DNA of 58,428 nt from positions 1 to 58,428 of the forward strand of contig CAZFOR010000004.1 of the NCBI GenBank assembly GCA_964520895.1, given 5' to 3'. This document shows positions 8,275 through 54,043 of this stretch, in pieces (within the stretch, counting starts at the first letter, position 1; every line of letters begins with the position of its first letter). The position numbers were made by a program, and so were the translations under genes. The notes beneath the pieces are model-generated. The model saw nothing but the letters and a program-made list of their open reading frames with translations. It searched no databases and was not told the origin of the DNA. The DNA is from an uncultured Eubacteriales bacterium (GTDB lineage Bacteria > Bacillota > Clostridia > TANB77 > SIG350).

Positions 8275-9504
8275 TTATTTTTGCTGTATTAAAACTAACC
8301 CAGTTTTATCAATACTTGTTTTTACATTAACATTAAAGCATGAGTATCTATAATTTTGTGACCAATTTACTTTTTCCCATTCATCCCATGTTAAAAAATT
8401 TTTTACTGCAGATCTTCCAAATCCAGATATATCTGAATTGAATACTTTAGATGTTTTATATAAATAATCTTTAATATTACTTTCTAAGATAAAACTTAAT
8501 TCTCTTTCAATTTCTTTTGAATTTTCTTCATTAATATAATCAACTTCATTGTTTACAGATATTATGTTAGCTTTAAGTGATATATCAATATTAATCAATG
8601 GCACAGAATCTACAAAATCAACTTTTATTTTTGTGTTTTTATCTTTAACTAAATTAAAAGAGATTATATTATCAGATGACATTGGATCATATATAGAGTA
8701 ATGTGACTGAGTAAATGAGTTATTTGTCATTAAATAATATATTGTTTCTTCACCTGTTAATTCACCAATCATTTTACAATTACGAAAGACTGCAAGACCT
8801 ATTGTTTCTGTTTCTGGGCCACCCTTTTTATTGAGTTCGCCTGCAGTAACATTAGCATCATTTGGTTTATATGATTGTTGATGTATTTGTTGTGAGTGAG
8901 TAGTATTGCTAATATTGGACAATAGTGCTACAGGTTCTCTATATGTTGATTGAGATGCTAATATAAATCCAAATAAATATGAATTGGCTGTAAATCCAGT
9001 ATATGGATAAGAAGTTAATAATAATTCATAAAATTTTGATATGTTTTTTTCTAATCCTGGTTTAGTATTATTAATGTAATTTTGAGCGCTACATTTTGAA
9101 ATTAATATATACATATTAGTTCTAAAATTCCTATCATTAAAAATTGTTGTTGTATACTCTTCTATATCTTCAAAAGCTATTTCCTCACTAAAAACAACTA
9201 TTTTGTTATGAGATAAATTTAATTGTTTACTAATATACGAATTTACTAAACTTATAGCTGAATAAATTGAAGGAGCATCAATTGTTGTAACAGTTGACAA
9301 TTTATCAAAATTTGCATCATCAGATTCAATAGCAATAGGATTTGCAAACTCGAAAGTTACTTCAATATTACCTGGATTTGTTTTACTTTTATCAATTCCC
9401 ATTGCTATAACATAAGCAGCTTCATTTATTTCTGTTTTATCATAACAACCAGTTAGAAAAAATAAGCACAGAGCACTAATTGCTATTAACAATATTTTTT
9501 TCAT
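8275..9504 (-). CDS. Spore germination protein, Ger(x)C-family lipoprotein
   Basis: Lipobox LFFLTGC after a signal peptide, followed by the GerAC-like motif YVIAMGIDK. ATG at 9504 follows AGGTGA. It is the last cistron of the ger operon. Confidence 0.8.
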   Translation of the reverse strand: MKKILLIAISALCLFFLTGCYDKTEINEAAYVIAMGIDKSKTNPGNIEVTFEFANPIAIESDDANFDKLSTVTTIDAPSIYSAISLVNSYISKQLNLSHNKIVVFSEEIAFEDIEEYTTTIFNDRNFRTNMYILISKCSAQNYINNTKPGLEKNISKFYELLLTSYPYTGFTANSYLFGFILASQSTYREPVALLSNISNTTHSQQIHQQSYKPNDANVTAGELNKKGGPETETIGLAVFRNCKMIGELTGEETIYYLMTNNSFTQSHYSIYDPMSSDNIISFNLVKDKNTKIKVDFVDSVPLINIDISLKANIISVNNEVDYINEENSKEIERELSFILESNIKDYLYKTSKVFNSDISGFGRSAVKNFLTWDEWEKVNWSQNYRYSCFNVNVKTSIDKTGLVLIQQK

Positions 9505-20712: not shown

Positions 20713-21339
20713 ATGATTGAAAATATATGTGACAAAATAACAAATAAGATTAAGAGTAAAAATCCTAATATGGATACAGAGAGATTAGAAGTAATAAATT
20801 TTGGTTTACAAGTTTTAATTGGTGAAGTTCCTAAGATTATGCTAATATTTTTATTTGCTTGGTATTTTGAAATATTAAAATTAACTTTAATAACATTTGT
20901 AGCAATTTCAATATACAGAACACAGGCAGGTGGATTCCATTTGGAGGGACATTTAAGTTGTTTAGGTTTTAGTTTGTTAGTATTTTGTGGAACAAGTTTT
21001 TTAGCAAAAACAATTGTGACTGAAAACGTATATTTACTATATACTCTTTATGGACTAATATTAATTTTTAATTTGTTAGTAATAAATAAATATGCACCAG
21101 CAGATACAGAGAAAATACCAATTATAAATATGAAAAGAAGAAGAACAAAGAAAATCTGTTCATATATAGCAGTAATTATTTTATATGTATTTGCAATATT
21201 TATATCAACTGATCAAGTAGTATCAAATATATGTGTGTTAGCTACATTGATACAAAGTATATGCATGACACCAATAACATATAAAATATCTAAATGTGAA
21301 TATGGAGAAATTACAAAGTTAGAGATGGACATGATATAA
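20713..21339 (+). CDS. agrB: AgrB-family accessory gene regulator protein (AIP-processing membrane peptidase)
   Basis: 208 aa, polytopic, with the AgrB signature RTQAGGFH. It is followed by a short AgrD-like ORF. Confidence 0.85.
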   Translation: MIENICDKITNKIKSKNPNMDTERLEVINFGLQVLIGEVPKIMLIFLFAWYFEILKLTLITFVAISIYRTQAGGFHLEGHLSCLGFSLLVFCGTSFLAKTIVTENVYLLYTLYGLILIFNLLVINKYAPADTEKIPIINMKRRRTKKICSYIAVIILYVFAIFISTDQVVSNICVLATLIQSICMTPITYKISKCEYGEITKLEMDMI

Positions 21340-21436
21340 GATATATATATAATACATGGCACAAAAACTATATTATTACTTTTATCGCAGCTATGTATTA
21401 TTAATATAAATACAAGATATAGAAGGAGGTGAATTT

Positions 21437-21544
21437 ATGACAAAAATATTAGCTAACTTAGCTGAAAAATATGCTAAATTAGGTGCAACAAGTGTATTAT
21501 TTGTATGGCATCAACCTAAAGCACCTAAAAGCTTATTAAAATAA
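21437..21544 (+). CDS. agrD: AgrD-like autoinducing-peptide precursor, 35 aa, without cysteine (not in the ORF track)
   Basis: RBS GGAGGTGA lies 6 nt upstream. Translation: MTKILANLAEKYAKLGATSVLFVWHQPKAPKSLLK. It has an amphipathic N-terminus and a QPxxPKSL tail, and sits directly after agrB. Confidence 0.7.
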   Translation: MTKILANLAEKYAKLGATSVLFVWHQPKAPKSLLK

Positions 21545-21653
21545 ATAATATTTAGCTTACTTACTTTTACATAAAATGTAAAAAAGATTTCATATATTAA
21601 TTACCTTTAAACAACCATATAGATCCTAACTATATGGTTGTATTTTTATACAT

Positions 21654-22994
21654 TTAAAAAAGAACTTCAAGTTTTTGAATAAAGAATTTATCATTTTTAT
21701 TTGTTTTTAATTCAAGATTATCATATTTTTTTAATAATTCTTTTACCTCCCATAAACCAAATCCTGATTTTTTCTTTTTTGTTGAAAAATCTTTTTCAAA
21801 TATTTTGTTCGTATTTATATCCTTGTTTGCATATGTATTTTTAATAGTAAAGTTCTGTTTTCTATTGTAAAAATCAATTGATACATGTATTTCAACTAAT
21901 TTATCTTCACATAAACTAGCTGCTTCAATTGCATTATCAAATAATATTCCAAATATTTTAACAAAATCAAATATATTGGTATTTATTGTAGAATAATCAA
22001 AAAATGATATTAGATTAATTTTAACACCTTTTGTATCAGCATAATCATATTTTGCTAAGAACAATCCAAATAATGGAGGATTGTTTATTACATCAGGATT
22101 TAATAATGATAAATTATTTACTTTTTGTATTTCAGGAAGTAAACCAGTTTCATAATAATTTTCAAGACCATCTAAATCTTTCATTTGTATATATCCACCA
22201 ATTGCTTGAATGATATTATTTATATCGTGTTTAAAGCCTCTATTAGAATCAACTAATTTACTTAAATTTTTGTTATATAAATTTGCTGTTTCTAATTCTC
22301 TATCAGTAATATATGATTTGTTAAATTTATATGTATTGTATGTACCAATTAAGAAAAACACAAATGCACAAATTATATTGTATACAATATATGATGTTGG
22401 GATTTCCATATCAATTAAAATAAGAAATATCATATTTGGACAAACAATAAATAGTATAGCAAGTATCGTTAACGTAATTCTAAATTTATCTGCCTTATTT
22501 ATTTCATCAGATAAATTTAGATTAATTTTAAAAAATTTAGAAATGTATACTGTTATAAATGTTCCAAAATAAAGAAAAATGGTGAAAAGACATTTATATA
22601 TAGGTATAGAGTTAGCTTGATATATATCTAAAAATATAACTTTACAAACAAAAATATTAATTATATATTCAAAAAGTACAATTAATAATGATTGTATACA
22701 TTGTAAAATAATACTTTTAAATATAGATAAATTAAAGAGCTTAACCTCAAGTACAATAATTAACGCAAAAATTAAAATAAAACTGTAAGGCAGAGGTATA
22801 CTTAATCTTATTATACTGCACAATATTGTAGATATTATTAGAAATATTAATAATCTTTTTTTAGTTACATTTATATTATATATAGTTTTTGCTAGATAGT
22901 AGTATAAGCACATTTCGATTAAAGTTAATGGAAATGTTAAAATTCCACATAAAAACTGATTAGGTGTAAAAAAATAATTTATTATATTTTGCAT
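21654..22994 (-). CDS. AgrC-like sensor histidine kinase (6-7 TM sensor plus HPK10/GHKL), copy 1
   Basis: Polytopic N-terminal half, H-box FKHDINN, and C-terminal GHKL (FDNAIEA … SGFGLW). Its start overlaps the stop of the LytTR regulator gene. Confidence 0.85.
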   Translation of the reverse strand: MQNIINYFFTPNQFLCGILTFPLTLIEMCLYYYLAKTIYNINVTKKRLLIFLIISTILCSIIRLSIPLPYSFILIFALIIVLEVKLFNLSIFKSIILQCIQSLLIVLFEYIINIFVCKVIFLDIYQANSIPIYKCLFTIFLYFGTFITVYISKFFKINLNLSDEINKADKFRITLTILAILFIVCPNMIFLILIDMEIPTSYIVYNIICAFVFFLIGTYNTYKFNKSYITDRELETANLYNKNLSKLVDSNRGFKHDINNIIQAIGGYIQMKDLDGLENYYETGLLPEIQKVNNLSLLNPDVINNPPLFGLFLAKYDYADTKGVKINLISFFDYSTINTNIFDFVKIFGILFDNAIEAASLCEDKLVEIHVSIDFYNRKQNFTIKNTYANKDINTNKIFEKDFSTKKKKSGFGLWEVKELLKKYDNLELKTNKNDKFFIQKLEVLF

Positions 22995-23686
22995 GTTTGA
23001 ATACCTCCTAAATCTGGTAAAAATTTTGTACTATATTTTAATTCTTGTTTGTTTTTTAATATTATAGTTTTAGTTTTCTCATGAACGCAAACAATGTGGT
23101 TTCTATTTACTATATATGATTTACTTATCTGTATAAAGTTATCTGTCAGACAAGATAAAAGTTCTAAAAAAGAAATATACAATTCAATAGTATTGATAGT
23201 TGTATAAAAAATAGATTTAGTAACTTGTTTCTCAACATAAATTAGTTCATCTAAATTAATAATAGCATTTTTAATTTTAGTAAAATGTCCATGTGGAGTA
23301 TGTAACTTATTTTCATGTATTCTAACTAAGGTTTCTTCTAAATGAGGGTTTATAGAGGGCTTTGGAATAAAGTCAAAAGGATTGCAAGTAAAAGACAATG
23401 GCATCTTATCCATTCTTGAAGAAAGAAAAACAATAATAATATTTTTATCAATTTTACGCAGTTTGTTACCAAGATCTATACCATCCATATGGTTAGTTTT
23501 TAAATCAATATCTAGTAACAAAATATCAGTTTTATTCTCAGAAGCATAATTATATACTTTATCAGGGTCGCCAGTTGACAAAACACATTTTAAATCTAAA
23601 TCATGTTTGATAGAAATTTTCTTAAGACTTAATTCAACATCTTTTCTAATTATTTCTTCATCATCACAAATAATAATATTTAACAT
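22982..23686 (-). CDS. LytTR-family response regulator (AgrA-like), copy 1
   Basis: Receiver domain (IIICDDE … LLLDIDL) plus a C-terminal LytTR domain (ELIYVEK … ISKSYIVNRNHI). Confidence 0.85.
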   Translation of the reverse strand: MLNIIICDDEEIIRKDVELSLKKISIKHDLDLKCVLSTGDPDKVYNYASENKTDILLLDIDLKTNHMDGIDLGNKLRKIDKNIIIVFLSSRMDKMPLSFTCNPFDFIPKPSINPHLEETLVRIHENKLHTPHGHFTKIKNAIINLDELIYVEKQVTKSIFYTTINTIELYISFLELLSCLTDNFIQISKSYIVNRNHIVCVHEKTKTIILKNKQELKYSTKFLPDLGGIQTCKI

Positions 23687-23845
23687 AAAATCCCCACTTT
23701 CTGAATATATTTTAATTAAGAATAAACAGACTTGAGCAACACAAAATATTCAACTTAACATATTTAAAACCGACATTAATATATTATTACTTTTGTATAA
23801 TTTTGTCAATTAGTTTTTGAAAAGATATAAAATGTGAAAAGATAT

Positions 23846-23883
23846 AAAGGAACTCATATTTTTTAAAAATATGAGTTCCTTTT
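23846..23883. terminator. Long palindromic bidirectional terminator downstream of abiEii
   Basis: AAAGGAACTCATATTTTT / AAAAATATGAGTTCCTTT. Confidence 0.65.
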
Positions 23884-23897
23884 GAATATATAATGAA

Positions 23898-24741
23898 TTA
23901 TTTTATAATGTTTGCAATTTCTTTTACTGCTAATATTGTTTCTTCATAAGTAATATCTTCAGCATAAAAGTAATCTCTTCTATAATTGTTCCAAAGTTTT
24001 TTTAATGTATCATCTGTTTCAATTGTATTAATTATTAAATCGATTTGCTCTAAGTTGCTTTGTGTTTCTCTAGAATTAAATTTATTAATAATTGCTTTTT
24101 TTAATATATTTTTATTATAGTTTTGACTTTGTAGTTTTTGTATAATGTACAAATCATAGAAATCTCTGGCTCTCGTATTTGCAGTACTTCTTGATATAAT
24201 AGTTTCGAACTTTTCACTTATAATAGTTTCCAAATTATAAGCTAGAACATTAATCTTTCTATCTTCAAATAATAAATCAAATTCATATTCTATTTCACTC
24301 GGAGTTATTGTGTCACCAGTTGTTATATCAATTCTGAAATTATGAATTATTGTTTGAAATTTTGCATTTAGTGTTACTCTATATCCTAAATAATCTGCTT
24401 CATCCCTAATATTTTTAATCATGACTATTTCAAAAGACACATCATCATCAACATCTATTTGTATGATTTCATTTAATATTTCATTTAATTTTACTTCTGA
24501 TAATTCAAAACCTTTTATTGTTGCATCCATATCTAATGTGTTTCGTAGATCTATTCCTACCATTGCACTTATTAGCATTCCGACCTTTTAATATAAAATT
24601 ATTTTTATATTTTGAAATAGATATTCTTTCCAACAATCTTTCTAGCATATAGTTTTGCAGTATAATATTGGCATTGACATTTGTATCTTTTGATAAATTT
24701 CGTATCCATGCTTTTAATTGTGCTGGGTTTTTAGCTATCAC
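23898..24741 (-). pseudogene. AbiEii/AbiGii-family nucleotidyltransferase toxin (type IV TA), frameshifted
   Basis: ORFs 24505..24741 (…NFILKGR) and 23898..24578 (MLISAMVGIDLRNTLDMDA…) together span about 281 codons. There is a one-base shift near 24576-24586. Confidence 0.7.
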
Positions 24742-25331
24742 ATTAACACCTCCATATAATTTTTTACTTTTTCAATAATATTTAATTTTTCTGCATACTC
24801 GTATAATTTTATAATGTTTTTATCTTTTCTTTCAACATATCTTTTCATTGCATCGGAAAATAAAGAAGCATCAATTTTATCTTTGTTTCGTATAATATCA
24901 CAAATAGTTCTTTCTAAATCATAACAATAAACTTCGTTTTGAAAAGGTGTCTTAATTTTTGTCTTGCCAATTTCATATAATTCTTCTTTTAAGTAAAAAA
25001 ACACATAATTATTATCTTTTAAAAGTCTACTATTATAATTTGAAGGAACAGTAGACATTAGTTTAATTGGTGTTCTATCAGATAATTGGTGAAAATATAA
25101 AGCTGTTGAATGTGAAAAAATAGCCTTATTACATATATGTTGAAAAACAACATAATTATCTTCGATAATATTGTTGTCTATATATAGTCCTCTTTCTATT
25201 CTTTCTATCAATCCTTTTTGAACTAGTCTTGTTAATGACATTTTACTAATATTTTCTTTTTTTAATAAAGATGTTTTTATAATGCCATTGCTATTTTTCA
25301 ATAATTCTAATACTTTTTCTTCATCAGTCAT
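24738..25331 (-). CDS. AbiEi-family antitoxin/transcriptional regulator (type IV TA)
   Basis: wHTH N-terminus (MSLTRLVQKGLIERIERGLY). Its stop overlaps the abiEii start by 4 nt. ATG at 25331 follows GGAGGTAA. Confidence 0.75.
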   Translation of the reverse strand: MTDEEKVLELLKNSNGIIKTSLLKKENISKMSLTRLVQKGLIERIERGLYIDNNIIEDNYVVFQHICNKAIFSHSTALYFHQLSDRTPIKLMSTVPSNYNSRLLKDNNYVFFYLKEELYEIGKTKIKTPFQNEVYCYDLERTICDIIRNKDKIDASLFSDAMKRYVERKDKNIIKLYEYAEKLNIIEKVKNYMEVLM

Positions 25332-25519
25332 ATTTGTTACCTCCGTTCGTATATATTTTAGCATATCCGAATAGAGGTAACAAGTCTTTTTAATAAAAAT
25401 ATAATTTTATCTATAAAAAATTATTACATATAAAGATATATTTGGTATATAAAATAAAAAAATAGAAGAACCAAATAGTGGAGATATAAATGGTTTTTCT
25501 ATTTTATAAATATTTGAGT

Positions 25520-26860
25520 TTAAAAAAGAACTTCAAGTTTTTGAATAAAGAATTTATCATTTTTATTTGTTTTTAATTCAAGATTATCATATTTTTTTAA
25601 TAATTCTTTTACCTCCCATAAACCAAATCCTGATTTTTTCTTTTTTGTTGAAAAATCTTTTTCAAATATTTTGTTCGTATTTATATCCTTGTTTGCATAT
25701 GTATTTTTAATAGTAAAGTTCTGTTTTCTATTGTAAAAATCAATTGATACATGTATTTCAACTAATTTATCTTCACATAAACTAGCTGCTTCAATTGCAT
25801 TATCAAATAATATTCCAAATATTTTAACAAAATCAAATATATTGGTATTTATTGTAGAATAATCAAAAAATGATATTAGATTAATTTTAACACCTTTTGT
25901 ATCAGCATAATCATATTTTGCTAAGAACAATCCAAATAATGGAGGATTGTTTATTACATCAGGATTTAATAATGATAAATTATTTACTTTTTGTATTTCA
26001 GGAAGTAAACCAGTTTCATAATAATTTTCAAGACCATCTAAATCTTTCATTTGTATATATCCACCAATTGCTTGAATGATATTATTTATATCGTGTTTAA
26101 AGCCTCTATTAGAATCAACTAATTTACTTAAATTTTTGTTATATAAATTTGCTGTTTCTAATTCTCTATCAGTAATATATGATTTGTTAAATTTATATGT
26201 ATTGTATGTACCAATTAAGAAAAACACAAATGCACAAATTATATTGTATACAATATATGATGTTGGGATTTCCATATCAATTAAAATAAGAAATATCATA
26301 TTTGGACAAACAATAAATAGTATAGCAAGTATCGTTAACGTAATTCTAAATTTATCTGCCTTATTTATTTCATCAGATAAATTTAGATTAATTTTAAAAA
26401 ATTTAGAAATGTATACTGTTATAAATGTTCCAAAATAAAGAAAAATGGTGAAAAGACATTTATATATAGGTATAGAGTTAGCTTGATATATATCTAAAAA
26501 TATAACTTTACAAACAAAAATATTAATTATATATTCAAAAAGTACAATTAATAATGATTGTATACATTGTAAAATAATACTTTTAAATATAGATAAATTA
26601 AAGAGCTTAACCTCAAGTACAATAATTAACGCAAAAATTAAAATAAAACTGTAAGGCAGAGGTATACTTAATCTTATTATACTGCACAATATTGTAGATA
26701 TTATTAGAAATATTAATAATCTTTTTTTAGTTACATTTATATTATATATAGTTTTTGCTAGATAGTAGTATAAGCACATTTCGATTAAAGTTAATGGAAA
26801 TGTTAAAATTCCACATAAAAACTGATTAGGTGTAAAAAAATAATTTATTATATTTTGCAT
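25520..26860 (-). CDS. AgrC-like sensor histidine kinase, copy 2 (protein identical to copy 1)
   Basis: The 446-aa translation is identical to 21654..22994. Confidence 0.85.
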   Translation of the reverse strand: MQNIINYFFTPNQFLCGILTFPLTLIEMCLYYYLAKTIYNINVTKKRLLIFLIISTILCSIIRLSIPLPYSFILIFALIIVLEVKLFNLSIFKSIILQCIQSLLIVLFEYIINIFVCKVIFLDIYQANSIPIYKCLFTIFLYFGTFITVYISKFFKINLNLSDEINKADKFRITLTILAILFIVCPNMIFLILIDMEIPTSYIVYNIICAFVFFLIGTYNTYKFNKSYITDRELETANLYNKNLSKLVDSNRGFKHDINNIIQAIGGYIQMKDLDGLENYYETGLLPEIQKVNNLSLLNPDVINNPPLFGLFLAKYDYADTKGVKINLISFFDYSTINTNIFDFVKIFGILFDNAIEAASLCEDKLVEIHVSIDFYNRKQNFTIKNTYANKDINTNKIFEKDFSTKKKKSGFGLWEVKELLKKYDNLELKTNKNDKFFIQKLEVLF

Positions 26861-27552
26861 GTTTGAATACCTCCTAAATCTGGTAAAAATTTTGTACTAT
26901 ATTTTAATTCTTGTTTGTTTTTTAATATTATAGTTTTAGTTTTCTCATGAACGCAAACAATGTGGTTTCTATTTACTATATATGATTTACTTATCTGTAT
27001 AAAGTTATCTGTCAGACAAGATAAAAGTTCTAAAAAAGAAATATACAATTCAATAGTATTGATAGTTGTATAAAAAATAGATTTAGTAACTTGTTTCTCA
27101 ACATAAATTAGTTCATCTAAATTAATAATAGCATTTTTAATTTTAGTAAAATGTCCATGTGGAGTATGTAACTTATTTTCATGTATTCTAACTAAGGTTT
27201 CTTCTAAATGAGGGTTTATAGAGGGCTTTGGAATAAAGTCAAAAGGATTGCAAGTAAAAGACAATGGCATCTTATCCATTCTTGAAGAAAGAAAAACAAT
27301 AATAATATTTTTATCAATTTTACGCAGTTTGTTACCAAGATCTATACCATCCATATGGTTAGTTTTTAAATCAATATCTAGTAACAAAATATCAGTTTTA
27401 TTCTCAGAAGCATAATTATATACTTTATCAGGGTCGCCAGTTGACAAAACACATTTTAAATCTAAATCATGTTTGATAGAAATTTTCTTAAGACTTAATT
27501 CAACATCTTTTCTAATTATTTCTTCATCATCACAAATAATAATATTTAACAT
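26848..27552 (-). CDS. LytTR-family response regulator, copy 2 (protein identical to copy 1)
   Basis: The 234-aa translation is identical to 22982..23686. Confidence 0.85.
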   Translation of the reverse strand: MLNIIICDDEEIIRKDVELSLKKISIKHDLDLKCVLSTGDPDKVYNYASENKTDILLLDIDLKTNHMDGIDLGNKLRKIDKNIIIVFLSSRMDKMPLSFTCNPFDFIPKPSINPHLEETLVRIHENKLHTPHGHFTKIKNAIINLDELIYVEKQVTKSIFYTTINTIELYISFLELLSCLTDNFIQISKSYIVNRNHIVCVHEKTKTIILKNKQELKYSTKFLPDLGGIQTCKI

Positions 27553-37733: not shown

Positions 37734-38054
37734 TTGTATTGCACCTCCTTATAACTTTAACTAAATTTTGCAAATACTATTTTAACATGTTATAAAAGGT
37801 TTTTCAAGTAATATTGCAAAAGTTATTAATAAAAGTTTACTTTTAGTAGATAAAATTAGTATAAAAAAAGTAAAAGTTTGCTTTTCTGACCTGTTTTAGT
37901 GCAATATTCATAATTTTTCTATTGACATAAGTATATGAATAATATATAATATACGTATTGCAAAAATGATTAAATTAAAAAGCAAGATAAATATTAATAT
38001 AATTAATATTTTAATATAATACATACTCCAGTAATTGGAAGGAGGGGAAAAGAT

Positions 38055-38228
38055 ATGTCAGAAATTAGAGTAAGAGAAAATGAAAATTTTGATAATGTTT
38101 TAAAAAGATTTAAAAGACAATGTGCAAAAAACGGAGTTTTAGCAGAGGTAAGAAAAAGAGAACATTATGAAAAACCTAGCGTAAAGAGAAAGAAAAAATC
38201 AGAAGCAGCTAGAAAAAGAAAATTTTAA
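38055..38228 (+). CDS. rpsU: 30S ribosomal protein S21 (57 aa; not in the ORF track)
   Basis: RBS GGAGGGG. Translation: [57 protein letters not shown]. Confidence 0.95.
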
Positions 38229-53342: not shown

Positions 53343-53361
53343 GAAAAATAATAAAAAACTA

Positions 53362-53390
53362 TTGACATTAGTAAAAATTGGTAATATAAT
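53362..53390 (+). promoter_or_regulatory. Consensus sigma-A promoter of candidate antitoxin sRNA, module 1
   Basis: TTGACA (53362-53367), 17-nt spacer, TATAAT (53385-53390). Confidence 0.7.
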
Positions 53391-53396
53391 ATAAAC

Positions 53397-53461
53397 ATAA
53401 TAGAACCAATACAAATCCAATGGTTTTCACGAAAAAAAGAGCGATGTAACCGCTCTTTTTT
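53397..53461 (+). ncRNA. Candidate antisense/antitoxin small RNA, module 1 (about 65 nt)
   Basis: It runs from the consensus promoter to the intrinsic terminator and has no ORF. It contains a 15-nt motif complementary to the toxin RBS/start region. Confidence 0.55.
53432..53461. terminator. Bidirectional intrinsic terminator shared by the convergent transcripts, module 1
   Basis: A7 run, then AGAGCG-ATGTAAC-CGCTCT, then a T run. Confidence 0.7.
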
Positions 53462-53476
53462 CATTTTTTATGTATT

Positions 53477-53539
53477 CTATTTTTGAGTAACAATAATTAA
53501 AAGTAATAATAGAACTATAAAAGCAACCATTAGTTCCAA
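53477..53539 (-). CDS. Candidate type I toxin, 20-aa hydrophobic peptide, module 1
   Basis: GGGAGGTG SD, 7 nt, TTG start. Translation: (M)ELMVAFIVLLLLLIIVTQK, ending at a stop just before the shared terminator. Confidence 0.55.
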   Translation of the reverse strand: MELMVAFIVLLLLLIIVTQK

Positions 53540-53576
53540 TGGTCTTCACCTCCCATCTTTTTCGTGGGATGAGAAT

Positions 53577-53605
53577 ATTATACTACCATAAATTACCAAA
53601 AGCAA
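53577..53605 (-). promoter_or_regulatory. Promoter of the candidate toxin mRNA, module 1
   Basis: On the minus strand: TTGCTT, 17-nt spacer, TATAAT. It is followed by the 5' hairpin UCCCA-N9-UGGGA, which overlaps the SD. Confidence 0.6.
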
Positions 53606-53672
53606 GAGAAATCCATCGCAAGTTTCGACATAAAAAAAGGAAAACTAAATGTGTTATTTTTATAAAAAACTA

Positions 53673-53701
53673 TTGACATTAGTAAAAATTGGTAATATAA
53701 T
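53673..53701 (+). promoter_or_regulatory. Consensus sigma-A promoter of candidate antitoxin sRNA, module 2
   Basis: TTGACA (53673-53678), 17-nt spacer, TATAAT (53696-53701). Confidence 0.7.
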
Positions 53702-53707
53702 ATAAAC

Positions 53708-53770
53708 ATAAAGATTATTATAAAAATCCAAATGGAATCACGAAAAAAGAGCGTACTAGCGCTCTTTTTT
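53708..53770 (+). ncRNA. Candidate antisense/antitoxin small RNA, module 2
   Basis: Same layout as module 1. Its 15-nt motif is perfectly complementary to the RBS/start region of its own toxin. Confidence 0.55.
53743..53770. terminator. Bidirectional intrinsic terminator, module 2
   Basis: A6 run, then AGAGCG-TACTAG-CGCTCT, then a T run. Confidence 0.7.
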
Positions 53771-53785
53771 CATTTTTTATGTATT

Positions 53786-53848
53786 CTATTTTTGAGCAGT
53801 AATAATTAAAAGTAATAATAGAACCATAAAGAGAATTATTAATTCCAA
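53786..53848 (-). CDS. Candidate type I toxin, 20-aa hydrophobic peptide, module 2
   Basis: GGGAGGTG SD, 7 nt, TTG start. Translation: (M)ELIILFMVLLLLLIITAQK. Confidence 0.55.
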   Translation of the reverse strand: MELIILFMVLLLLLIITAQK

Positions 53849-53885
53849 ATGGAATCACCTCCCATCTTTTTCGTGGGATGAAAAT

Positions 53886-53914
53886 ATTATACTACCATAT
53901 ATTACCAAAAGCAA
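53886..53914 (-). promoter_or_regulatory. Promoter of the candidate toxin mRNA, module 2
   Basis: On the minus strand: TTGCTT, 17-nt spacer, TATAAT. Confidence 0.6.
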
Positions 53915-54043
53915 GAAAAATCAATCGCAAGTTTCGACATATAAGAAGTGTAATTTTTATATAAATATTTTAAATAAAATTGTATGCAAAAATATAATTA
54001 AATGATATAATCACTTTAATAAAAAAATTAAGGGGATGATAAA

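Follow-up and report, generated by a model that had tools for sequence, protein, structure and literature searches.

A tandem pair of candidate type I toxin-antitoxin modules between murG and thyX in an uncultured Clostridia bacterium

What does a spacer of about 0.70 kb at the end of a dcw cluster encode? The sequence analysed here is a stretch of 58,428 nucleotides (hereafter the window) from an uncultured Eubacteriales bacterium (contig CAZFOR010000004.1 of assembly GCA_964520895.1), in which the spacer between murG and thyX covers positions 53343-54043. A first-pass annotation, made from the letters alone, had read in this spacer two tandem candidates for toxin-antitoxin (TA) modules of type I with the architecture of the enterococcal par locus. 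All the elements it described are confirmed; they lie where it had placed them and stand well above chance expectation. Convergent promoters, a shared terminator, a 5' stem-loop touching the Shine-Dalgarno (SD) sequence and a tiny open reading frame (ORF) were all recovered, and blocks resembling the direct repeats DRa and DRb of par were found besides. We consider it probable, judging from sequence and predicted RNA structure, that the spacer consists of two tandemly duplicated paralogous type I TA modules with an organisation of the par (Fst/RNA II) or SprA1/SprA1as type. Each would combine a peptide gene on the - strand with a convergent small RNA (sRNA) gene on the + strand.

The tandem duplication inside the spacer has a period of 309-311 nt. 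It includes a 50-nt exact repeat (53351-53400 and 53662-53711) and a 189-nt repeat of 89% identity (53451-53639 and 53760-53948), and pairwise alignment of the two units gave a mean identity of 90%. The units had originally been described as about 283 bp long; the tandem pair itself stands, but 283 bp corresponds to the conserved cores only and the true period is about 310. The spacer is flanked by MurG (PF03033/PF04101) and by a 381-residue Thy1-domain protein (PF02511), and the cassette follows murG immediately, where the dcw cluster ends. In three samples of the Sequence Read Archive (SRA; SRR8925725, SRR8925783 and SRR8925823), the Logan contigs that carry MurG/ThyX identical to those of the window, or in the same 90% cluster, all stop within the tandem repeat, at about 53380-53394 and 53801. 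Their flanking and overlapping sequence equals that of the window, with no variation. Since the flanks are identical in contigs of three samples, the duplication appears to be real and not peculiar to one assembly. The short-read assemblies of all three SRA runs are thus fragmented at the tandem repeat.

On the + strand, the perfect sigma-A promoter claimed for each unit is present in both (Table 1). Only three perfect TTGACA-17-TATAAT sites occur in the window, where 0.11 would be expected, and the third one (37922-37950, +) lies about 100 nt upstream of rpsU, the gene for ribosomal protein S21 (38055-38228). The presence of a perfect site upstream of rpsU suggests that this consensus marks strongly expressed genes in this organism, and it offers an internal calibration according to which the sRNA promoters would be of ribosomal-protein strength. 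With start sites placed 7 nt after each -10 hexamer, the predicted sRNAs are about 72 nt long, rather than about 65 nt as first estimated, and both fold far better than shuffled sequences. About 40 nt past each sRNA promoter stands a hairpin with a G+C-rich core between an A-run and a T-run. Terminator-like matches in the region number three, compared to 0.2 in shuffled sequences, and the bidirectional terminator that had been proposed to serve both genes is borne out in both units. The predicted sRNA and toxin mRNA overlap in this terminator only, over about 40 nt, the sRNA ending before the ORF. Regarding the YUNR U-turn motif of par, the terminator loop of unit 2 contains CUAG.

On the opposite strand, the convergent promoter reported earlier is kept in both units. 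It matches the consensus at 9 of 12 positions (3 of 6 in the -35 hexamer), lies under the threshold of the promoter scan and was found by eye. Taken together, an sRNA promoter at consensus, like that of rpsU, and a toxin promoter with a weaker -35 hexamer fit an antitoxin made in excess. Downstream of the - strand promoter, the sequence TCCCA-N9-TGGGAGGTG was observed twice in the window (53569-53546 and 53878-53855) with none expected, and the gap from GGUG to the UUG start is 7 nt. The hydrophobic 20-codon ORF that had been read from this TTG was found again at both places, and both copies stop 15 nt ahead of the terminator stem. Residues 3-18 of the peptide are uncharged and largely hydrophobic, with a strictly hydrophobic run of at least 12 residues. 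Among the 665 ORFs of 15-45 codons in the six frames of the window, three have such a run, and the two candidates alone are also preceded by an SD. Both predicted mRNAs share four domains: the 5' stem-loop, a hairpin around the UUG, a helix formed by codons 7-12 with the 3' untranslated region (UTR), and the terminator. No separate long-range helix on the mRNA 5' end was seen in the folds predicted from the placed start site; the 5' stem-loop, which in these folds starts at nucleotide 2, may act as a substitute for the 5' upstream helix of par.

Several other readings of the - strand were considered and rejected. A GTG-initiated ORF of 40/46 codons overlaps the SD with no spacer and reads through the terminator, an 8-codon AUG ORF within the 5' hairpin has no SD, and an in-frame ATG at codon 4 is found in unit 1 only. 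An AgrD-like pheromone precursor was dismissed on account of the peptide, which has neither a Cys/Ser ring residue nor a charged tail. Just upstream of the toxin -35 hexamer, a G+C-rich block TCGCAAGTTTCGA is present in both units (53616-53628 and 53925-53937) and forms an imperfect palindrome, TCG-N7-CGA. From its sequence and position, the block could serve as the operator at which toxin transcription is regulated; a LexA/Cheo box was rejected there because of the poor fit to CGAAC-N4-GTTCG. It was also observed that the sRNA and toxin promoters of each unit are inverted with respect to each other and 71-80% complementary over 25-34 nt (53359-53392 versus 53575-53608, and the unit 2 equivalents). 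The two promoters thus frame the cassette as imperfect inverted repeats, which may be a hint at the origin of the module.

The two RNAs of each unit are also complementary outside the terminator, a feature that was not part of the earlier annotation. Outside the overlap, the 5' part of the sRNA repeats, in degenerate form and in direct orientation, the + strand sequence that faces the toxin initiation region. Because the two genes are transcribed in opposite directions, direct repeats in the DNA become complementarity between the RNAs. In unit 1, the seed block a equals 53535-53549 except for one T/C difference, which is the source of the G.U pair, and its target extends from the SD 3' end over the UUG start codon. 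In their arrangement, blocks a and b correspond to DRa and DRb of the enterococcal par locus. Duplex energies were calculated with RNAduplex on the 5' parts alone, leaving out the terminator overlap. The cognate pairs gave -32.5 kcal/mol (sRNA1-mRNA1) and -30.3 kcal/mol (sRNA2-mRNA2), compared to -23.3 kcal/mol for sRNA1-mRNA2 and -13.1 kcal/mol for sRNA2-mRNA1. Seeds shuffled by mononucleotide reached only -11.5 ± 2.7 and -8.8 ± 2.5 kcal/mol, corresponding to z values of -7.9 and -8.5 for the cognate pairs, and the cognate seeds rank 1 and 2 among about 9,600 windows of the same length on both strands of the 58-kb sequence. When full-length RNAs were co-folded, the perfect 3' duplex of about 40 bp dominated and the cognate pairs were again favoured.

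The 13-nt core of the sRNA2 seed (TCCAAATGGAATC) has a third occurrence, at 20933-20945 on the - strand, inside agrB. The agrB mRNA hence contains a perfect 13-nt complement to sRNA2, while no match is expected from 100 shuffles, and the 34-nt window around the site forms the strongest non-cognate duplex with mRNA2 (-31.7 kcal/mol). No agrB counterpart of the sRNA1 seed was found in the window. On sequence grounds, the site could be a trans target or a coincidence.

Comparison of the two units showed where they have diverged. They differ at 14 of 36 positions in the sRNA 5' part, at 5 of 7 in the terminator loop and at 12 of 45 in the mRNA target. The contact regions thus hold 31 differences in 88 positions and the remainder 16 in 202 (odds ratio 6.3, Fisher p = 4e-8). 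No difference between the units was seen in the sRNA promoters, the SD hairpin or the 3' UTR, hardly any in the central codons, and 3 in the 41 positions of the toxin promoters. The core seed shows an mRNA change, from CCAATGGTCTTCAC to CCAAATGGAATCAC, that is mirrored in the sRNA. As far as can be read from the two sequences, sRNA and target have changed together, so that the paralogues differ in a compensatory manner. With 10 substitutions in its 63 nt, the ORF has one synonymous change and six residue differences (M/I, V/I, A/L, I/M, V/T and T/A), whose conservative nature the earlier annotation had already pointed out, and contains neither a stop codon nor a polar or charged replacement. 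It stayed open and hydrophobic in only 2.7% of random-substitution simulations, which suggests that the ORF behaves as coding sequence.

Taken as a type I TA pair, each module would work as follows. The - strand promoter, of moderate strength, would give rise to an mRNA of about 143 nt, whose 5' stem-loop would pair part of the SD and whose second hairpin would hold the UUG. Translation would yield a 20-residue hydrophobic peptide forming a single helix, which may insert into the membrane and cause harm when over-made, by analogy with IbsC and other type I toxins. IbsC itself has 19 residues and is still toxic at 15 residues provided that at least 10 are hydrophobic (PMC8309996). From the convergent, consensus-perfect promoter on the + strand, the sRNA of about 72 nt would be produced, and, owing to the shared terminator, the two RNAs would match each other completely over about 40 nt at their 3' ends. 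The 5' blocks of the sRNA would pair at the SD/start codon and within the ORF, blocking ribosome binding, and the 3' duplex may be an additional anchor for the complex or a route to degradation. Until this pairing is complete, translation would be kept low by the two hairpins, that at the 5' end and that around the start codon. With divergence located mainly in the contact regions, each sRNA would best fit its own mRNA. One recognised mark of type I loci is that they are duplicated in tandem inside a single intergenic region (PMC2887945).

Table 1. Positions of the predicted elements of both units. Coordinates are those of the window; - strand features are read from the higher to the lower position, except for the stem-loops.
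Feature	Unit	Position	Strand	Basis or value
Antitoxin-sRNA promoter, TTGACA-17-TATAAT	1	53362-53390	+	12/12 consensus
Antitoxin-sRNA promoter, TTGACA-17-TATAAT	2	53673-53701	+	12/12 consensus
Predicted antitoxin sRNA, ~72 nt, 3' end in U-run after terminator	1	53397-53469	+	fold -16.6 kcal/mol, z -4.5
Predicted antitoxin sRNA, ~72 nt	2	53708-53779	+	fold -20.1 kcal/mol, z -5.7
Seed block a (DRa-like), TCCAATGGTTTTCAC	1	53416-53430	+	vs mRNA 53549-53535, 14 Watson-Crick + 1 G.U
Seed block a	2	53727-53741	+	vs mRNA 53858-53844, 15/15 Watson-Crick, from first SD base through UUG
Seed block b (DRb-like)	1	53397-53406	+	vs toxin codons 9-12, 53515-53506
Seed block b	2	53708-53714	+	vs toxin codons 6-8, 53832-53826
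Shared bidirectional intrinsic terminator, sRNA/toxin-mRNA overlap region	1	53433-53461	both	terminator scan, fold
Shared bidirectional intrinsic terminator	2	53742-53771	both	called on both strands
Toxin promoter, TTGCTT-17-TATAAT, inferred start A53570	1	53605-53577	-	read from sequence, conserved in unit 2
Toxin promoter, TTGCTT-17-TATAAT, inferred start A53879	2	53914-53886	-	read from sequence
Predicted toxin mRNA, ~143 nt	1	53570-53428	-	fold -34.8 kcal/mol, z -3.6
Predicted toxin mRNA, ~143 nt	2	53879-53737	-	fold -38.9 kcal/mol, z -4.9
5' stem-loop UCCCA-N9-UGGGA overlapping SD GGGAGGUG	1	53546-53569	-	pattern, fold
5' stem-loop and SD, same as unit 1	2	53855-53878	-	pattern, fold
Toxin candidate ORF, TTG start, 20 codons, MELMVAFIVLLLLLIIVTQK	1	53539-53477	-	ORF reading
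Toxin candidate ORF, TTG start, 20 codons, MELIILFMVLLLLLIITAQK	2	53848-53786	-	ORF reading

The distribution of the cassette was evaluated from its flanking genes and from its own sequence. The closest relative found, a pig/human-gut metagenome scaffold from ENA, has a ThyX that is 64% identical and keeps the order mraZ ... mraY-ftsW-murG-thyX. Its murG-thyX spacer (scaffold positions 9150-9265) measures 116 nt and contains no module, compared to about 0.70 kb in the window. Judging from the absence of the module there, the cassette is an insertion of about 0.6 kb that is specific to its lineage and lies in a core spacer. Downstream of thyX, the relative carries ruvA-ruvB-metK and the window a PHP-domain gene and cysS, so that synteny ends right after thyX. 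More distant ThyX relatives, of about 55% identity, are labelled as metagenome-assembled genomes ('MAG: Clostridia bacterium').

As the first-pass annotation had stated of the peptide, no described family accommodates it: neither Pfam, NCBIfam, PADLOC nor Rfam gave a match and the Fst signature is absent. With both peptides, searches of Pfam and NCBIfam at E values up to 10 returned three chance-level matches only, and PADLOC returned none. Rfam gave nothing relevant, either for the locus at E values up to 10 or for the whole window at gathering thresholds. None of its type I antitoxin families reached the gathering score, the best E values being at least 0.13, for unrelated sRNAs, and BsrG scored 14 bits against a cut-off of 55. 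Genome collections were scanned with the pattern TATAAT-N5-9-TCCCA-N7-11-TGGGAGGTG. Nine matches were obtained in 185,579 GTDB representative genomes and seven in JGI metagenomes; those inspected, three from Bacillota/Clostridia and all seven from metagenomes, proved to be chance matches in unrelated sequence. The same kind of scan on IMG/VR gave no match. A blastn search with the whole unit found nothing in PLSDB plasmids and three 45-nt chance matches in INPHARED phages, and a tblastn search of plasmids and phages with the peptides gave no match, probably due to the low-complexity filter. No further copy of the unit is present in the 58-kb window.

A number of observations weigh against the interpretation as a pair of TA modules. 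The finding comes from one population of an uncultured gut Clostridia lineage, as judged from the sequences at hand, and the sole comparative evidence is provided by two paralogues of about 90% identity, which are not independent. No homologue was found outside this population in plasmids, phages, GTDB representatives, JGI metagenomes or IMG/VR. As one exact pattern class was scanned, relatives with another hairpin or -10 hexamer would be missed, and since the peptide is in addition too short for protein tools, this absence is weaker evidence than it appears. The 5' hairpin that had been described as overlapping the SD is present and identical in both units, but it is weak and, on its own, not significant (-6.7 kcal/mol, z -1.5, equalled by 12 of 200 shuffles) and pairs only the GGGA of the SD. 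The terminator loop of unit 1 has 3 nt (UAC) in the minimum-energy fold and no YUNR, which makes a par-style loop-loop initiation doubtful in that unit; the motif is not present in all par homologues either (PMC7472228). The peptides end in TQK or AQK and have no charged or bulky C-terminal cluster of the kind typical of Gram-positive type I toxins, and their hydrophobic core, at 16 residues, is short relative to a bilayer. Regarding the pairing, two chance genomic windows come near the cognate energies (-29.8 and -31.7 kcal/mol), so that duplex energy alone is not decisive. Finally, block b of sRNA1 fits mRNA2 (12/12) better than its own mRNA (10/12), indicating that orthogonality is incomplete.

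Could the same elements have another function? The architecture described above would fit any antisense-regulated small ORF equally well, and the product could be a small membrane protein repressed by the sRNA and not a toxin, which for instance modulates a membrane enzyme or transporter, possibly in connection with the dcw genes, while the sRNA tunes its level. Such a role would agree with the place of the cassette, immediately behind murG where the dcw cluster ends, and with a peptide whose C terminus does not form the strongly charged tail that Gram-positive type I toxins typically have (PMC6563280). We nevertheless regard it as unlikely. The closest relative syntenic for murG-thyX has no such gene, which points to an accessory and not a dcw function, and type I TA loci are characteristically duplicated in tandem, with sRNA/target pairs that diverge together (PMC2887945). 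Moreover, a consensus-perfect antisense promoter facing a weaker ORF promoter suggests a product that is to be kept off, and hydrophobic peptides of the size of IbsC are toxic (PMC8309996).

The repeat structure itself would allow a different origin, in which the spacer would hold a non-coding repeated intergenic element, like a miniature inverted-repeat transposable element or a promoter/terminator 'insulator', and the ORF and the complementarity would be by-products of internal repeats. Indeed, the promoters form imperfect inverted repeats of 34 nt at the unit ends, 71% complementary, which resemble terminal inverted repeats, and only two copies are known, in one spacer, with no homologue in the libraries searched. 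The same scarcity argues the other way, as a mobile repeat family would not be expected to lack more copies in the 58 kb, the GTDB representatives, the JGI metagenomes and IMG/VR. A non-coding element also does not account for a near-ideal SD with its spacing (the ORF is one of two such among the 665 in the window), for an ORF that remained open and hydrophobic through 10 substitutions (2.7% by chance) or for a divergence that is focused on mutually complementary segments and compensated, and we consider this explanation highly unlikely. Hardly any weight is given to a last alternative, in which the + strand RNAs would primarily be trans-acting sRNAs with other targets or terminated leaders for read-through into thyX. 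The + strand promoters do point at thyX, and the agrB coding strand has, at 20933-20945, a match to the 13-nt core of that seed of sRNA2 where none is expected. However, thyX has a promoter-like site of its own (53969-53998), no riboswitch, T-box or leader family of Rfam matched, and the agrB site is internal to an ORF and has no sRNA1 counterpart. The longest and best complementarity of these RNAs is to the initiation region of the neighbouring mRNA, with which they co-vary.

The gene agrB mentioned above belongs to an agr-like quorum-sensing locus elsewhere in the window (20713-27552), AgrB being encoded at 20713-21339 (+). A GHKL histidine kinase (446 residues) and a LytTR response regulator (234 residues) occur there in two copies (21654-23686 and 25520-27552). 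At the protein level the two kinases are 100% identical, the two response regulators have identical Pfam hit statistics, and the copies bracket an AbiEii/AbiEi type IV TA pair (23898-24578 and 24738-25364). Such a perfect direct repeat of 2 kb may stem from a real duplication that surrounds an inserted AbiE module, or be an artefact of the metagenome assembly.

How far the murG-thyX cassette would extend the range of type I systems depends on whether it represents a family of its own. We hold the chances to be about even that it founds an undescribed family of type I toxins, ultrashort (20 residues) and Gram-positive, which would have no Fst/Ldr signatures, would be controlled by a complete par-style RNA circuit and would include paralogues co-diverged toward orthogonality. 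If so, the peptide would, to our knowledge, be the shortest type I toxin in Firmicutes, and the lower size limit of Gram-positive type I toxins would be extended to that of IbsC. The par regulatory layout would then be separated from the Fst peptide family, the par architecture being either far older and more widespread than Fst peptides or having arisen more than once. It would also provide a compact (about 310 bp), duplicated and partly orthogonal sRNA/mRNA pair, of use for studying how antitoxin specificity evolves after duplication and for the design of RNA regulators. Such loci would have been missed because the ORF is below the length limits of gene callers and because assemblers break contigs in the repeat. 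The only experimentally characterised type I TA systems of Clostridia are those of C. difficile, with toxins of 34-59 residues, and Fst-like loci have been reported in only two clostridial species (PMC6563280).

With respect to known systems, both general features of type I modules that can be recognised in silico are present, namely a small (<60 residues) hydrophobic peptide with a predicted transmembrane helix and an adjacent predicted antisense RNA that could pair with the toxin mRNA. The closest likeness is to par, in its forms on Enterococcus faecalis pAD1 (fst RNA I/RNA II) and in chromosomal par-like loci of Firmicutes, with which the modules share the convergent promoters, the common terminator, two direct-repeat blocks, a 5' stem-loop that touches the SD but is weak in the present case, a toxin ORF outside the sRNA overlap and the size of the antitoxin. 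RNA II is about 65 nt long, compared to about 72 nt here. Larger differences concern the toxin, which has about 27-35 residues in par versus 20 here, and its mRNA (about 210 nt versus about 143 nt). The layout of par comprises convergent promoters, a bidirectional terminator, DRa/DRb over the initiation site, a 5' stem-loop on the SD and a 5' upstream helix (PMC7472228). Of these, the first three are present here, the stem-loop is present but weak, and the separate helix is not evident; the U-turn that par has in its terminator loop is lacking in unit 1. Toxins of the Fst/Ldr superfamily carry a PXXXG(C) motif in their hydrophobic domain, along with a conserved Trp and a C-terminal tail that is charged (PMC7472228). 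The peptides described here have no Pro, Gly or Trp, no charged tail and no profile match, and so do not show the features by which membership is recognised.

According to T1TAdb, the antisense RNAs of Fst/RNA II and SprA1/SprA1as overlap the 3' end of the mRNA only, and not the ORF, and interact outside the overlap (PMC8594479). The predicted RNAs of the spacer are arranged in just this way. SprA1/SprA1as of Staphylococcus aureus, which encodes PepA1, is thus alike in its 3'-end overlap and in a pairing predicted at the ribosome-binding site/start codon (PMC8594479), but PepA1 has 30 residues, belongs to the Fst/Ldr superfamily with PXXXG(C) (PMC7472228) and has no sequence similarity to the peptide found here. 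Ibs/Sib of Escherichia coli resembles the cassette in its ultrashort hydrophobic toxin, its tandem loci in one intergenic region and target-recognition regions that differ between paralogues. It differs in its Gram-negative host and in a Sib RNA that is fully antisense across the ibs ORF (PMC8594479), whereas the overlap here is confined to the terminator, and the sequences are not similar. The modules of Clostridioides difficile (e.g. CD2517.1-RCd8) share the bacterial class, a small membrane peptide and a convergent antisense RNA; their toxins have 34-59 residues and lysine-rich tails, and many are located in prophages or prophage-like regions or adjacent to CRISPR (PMC6563280), whereas the present module is placed in a spacer of the core dcw/thyX region and its peptide has no sequence relation to theirs. 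In zorO-orzO/zorP-orzP of E. coli O157:H7, a tandem type I locus likewise widens the spacer, from 0.3 to 1.2 kb (PMC2887945), compared to 0.12 and about 0.70 kb here, but the toxin has 29 residues and the host is Gram-negative. Together, these comparisons suggest that the module would work in the manner of par or SprA1, yet it is no demonstrable member of the Fst/Ldr toxins or of any Rfam antitoxin family. It is a known layout with an orphan ultrashort peptide, and not a new category of system.

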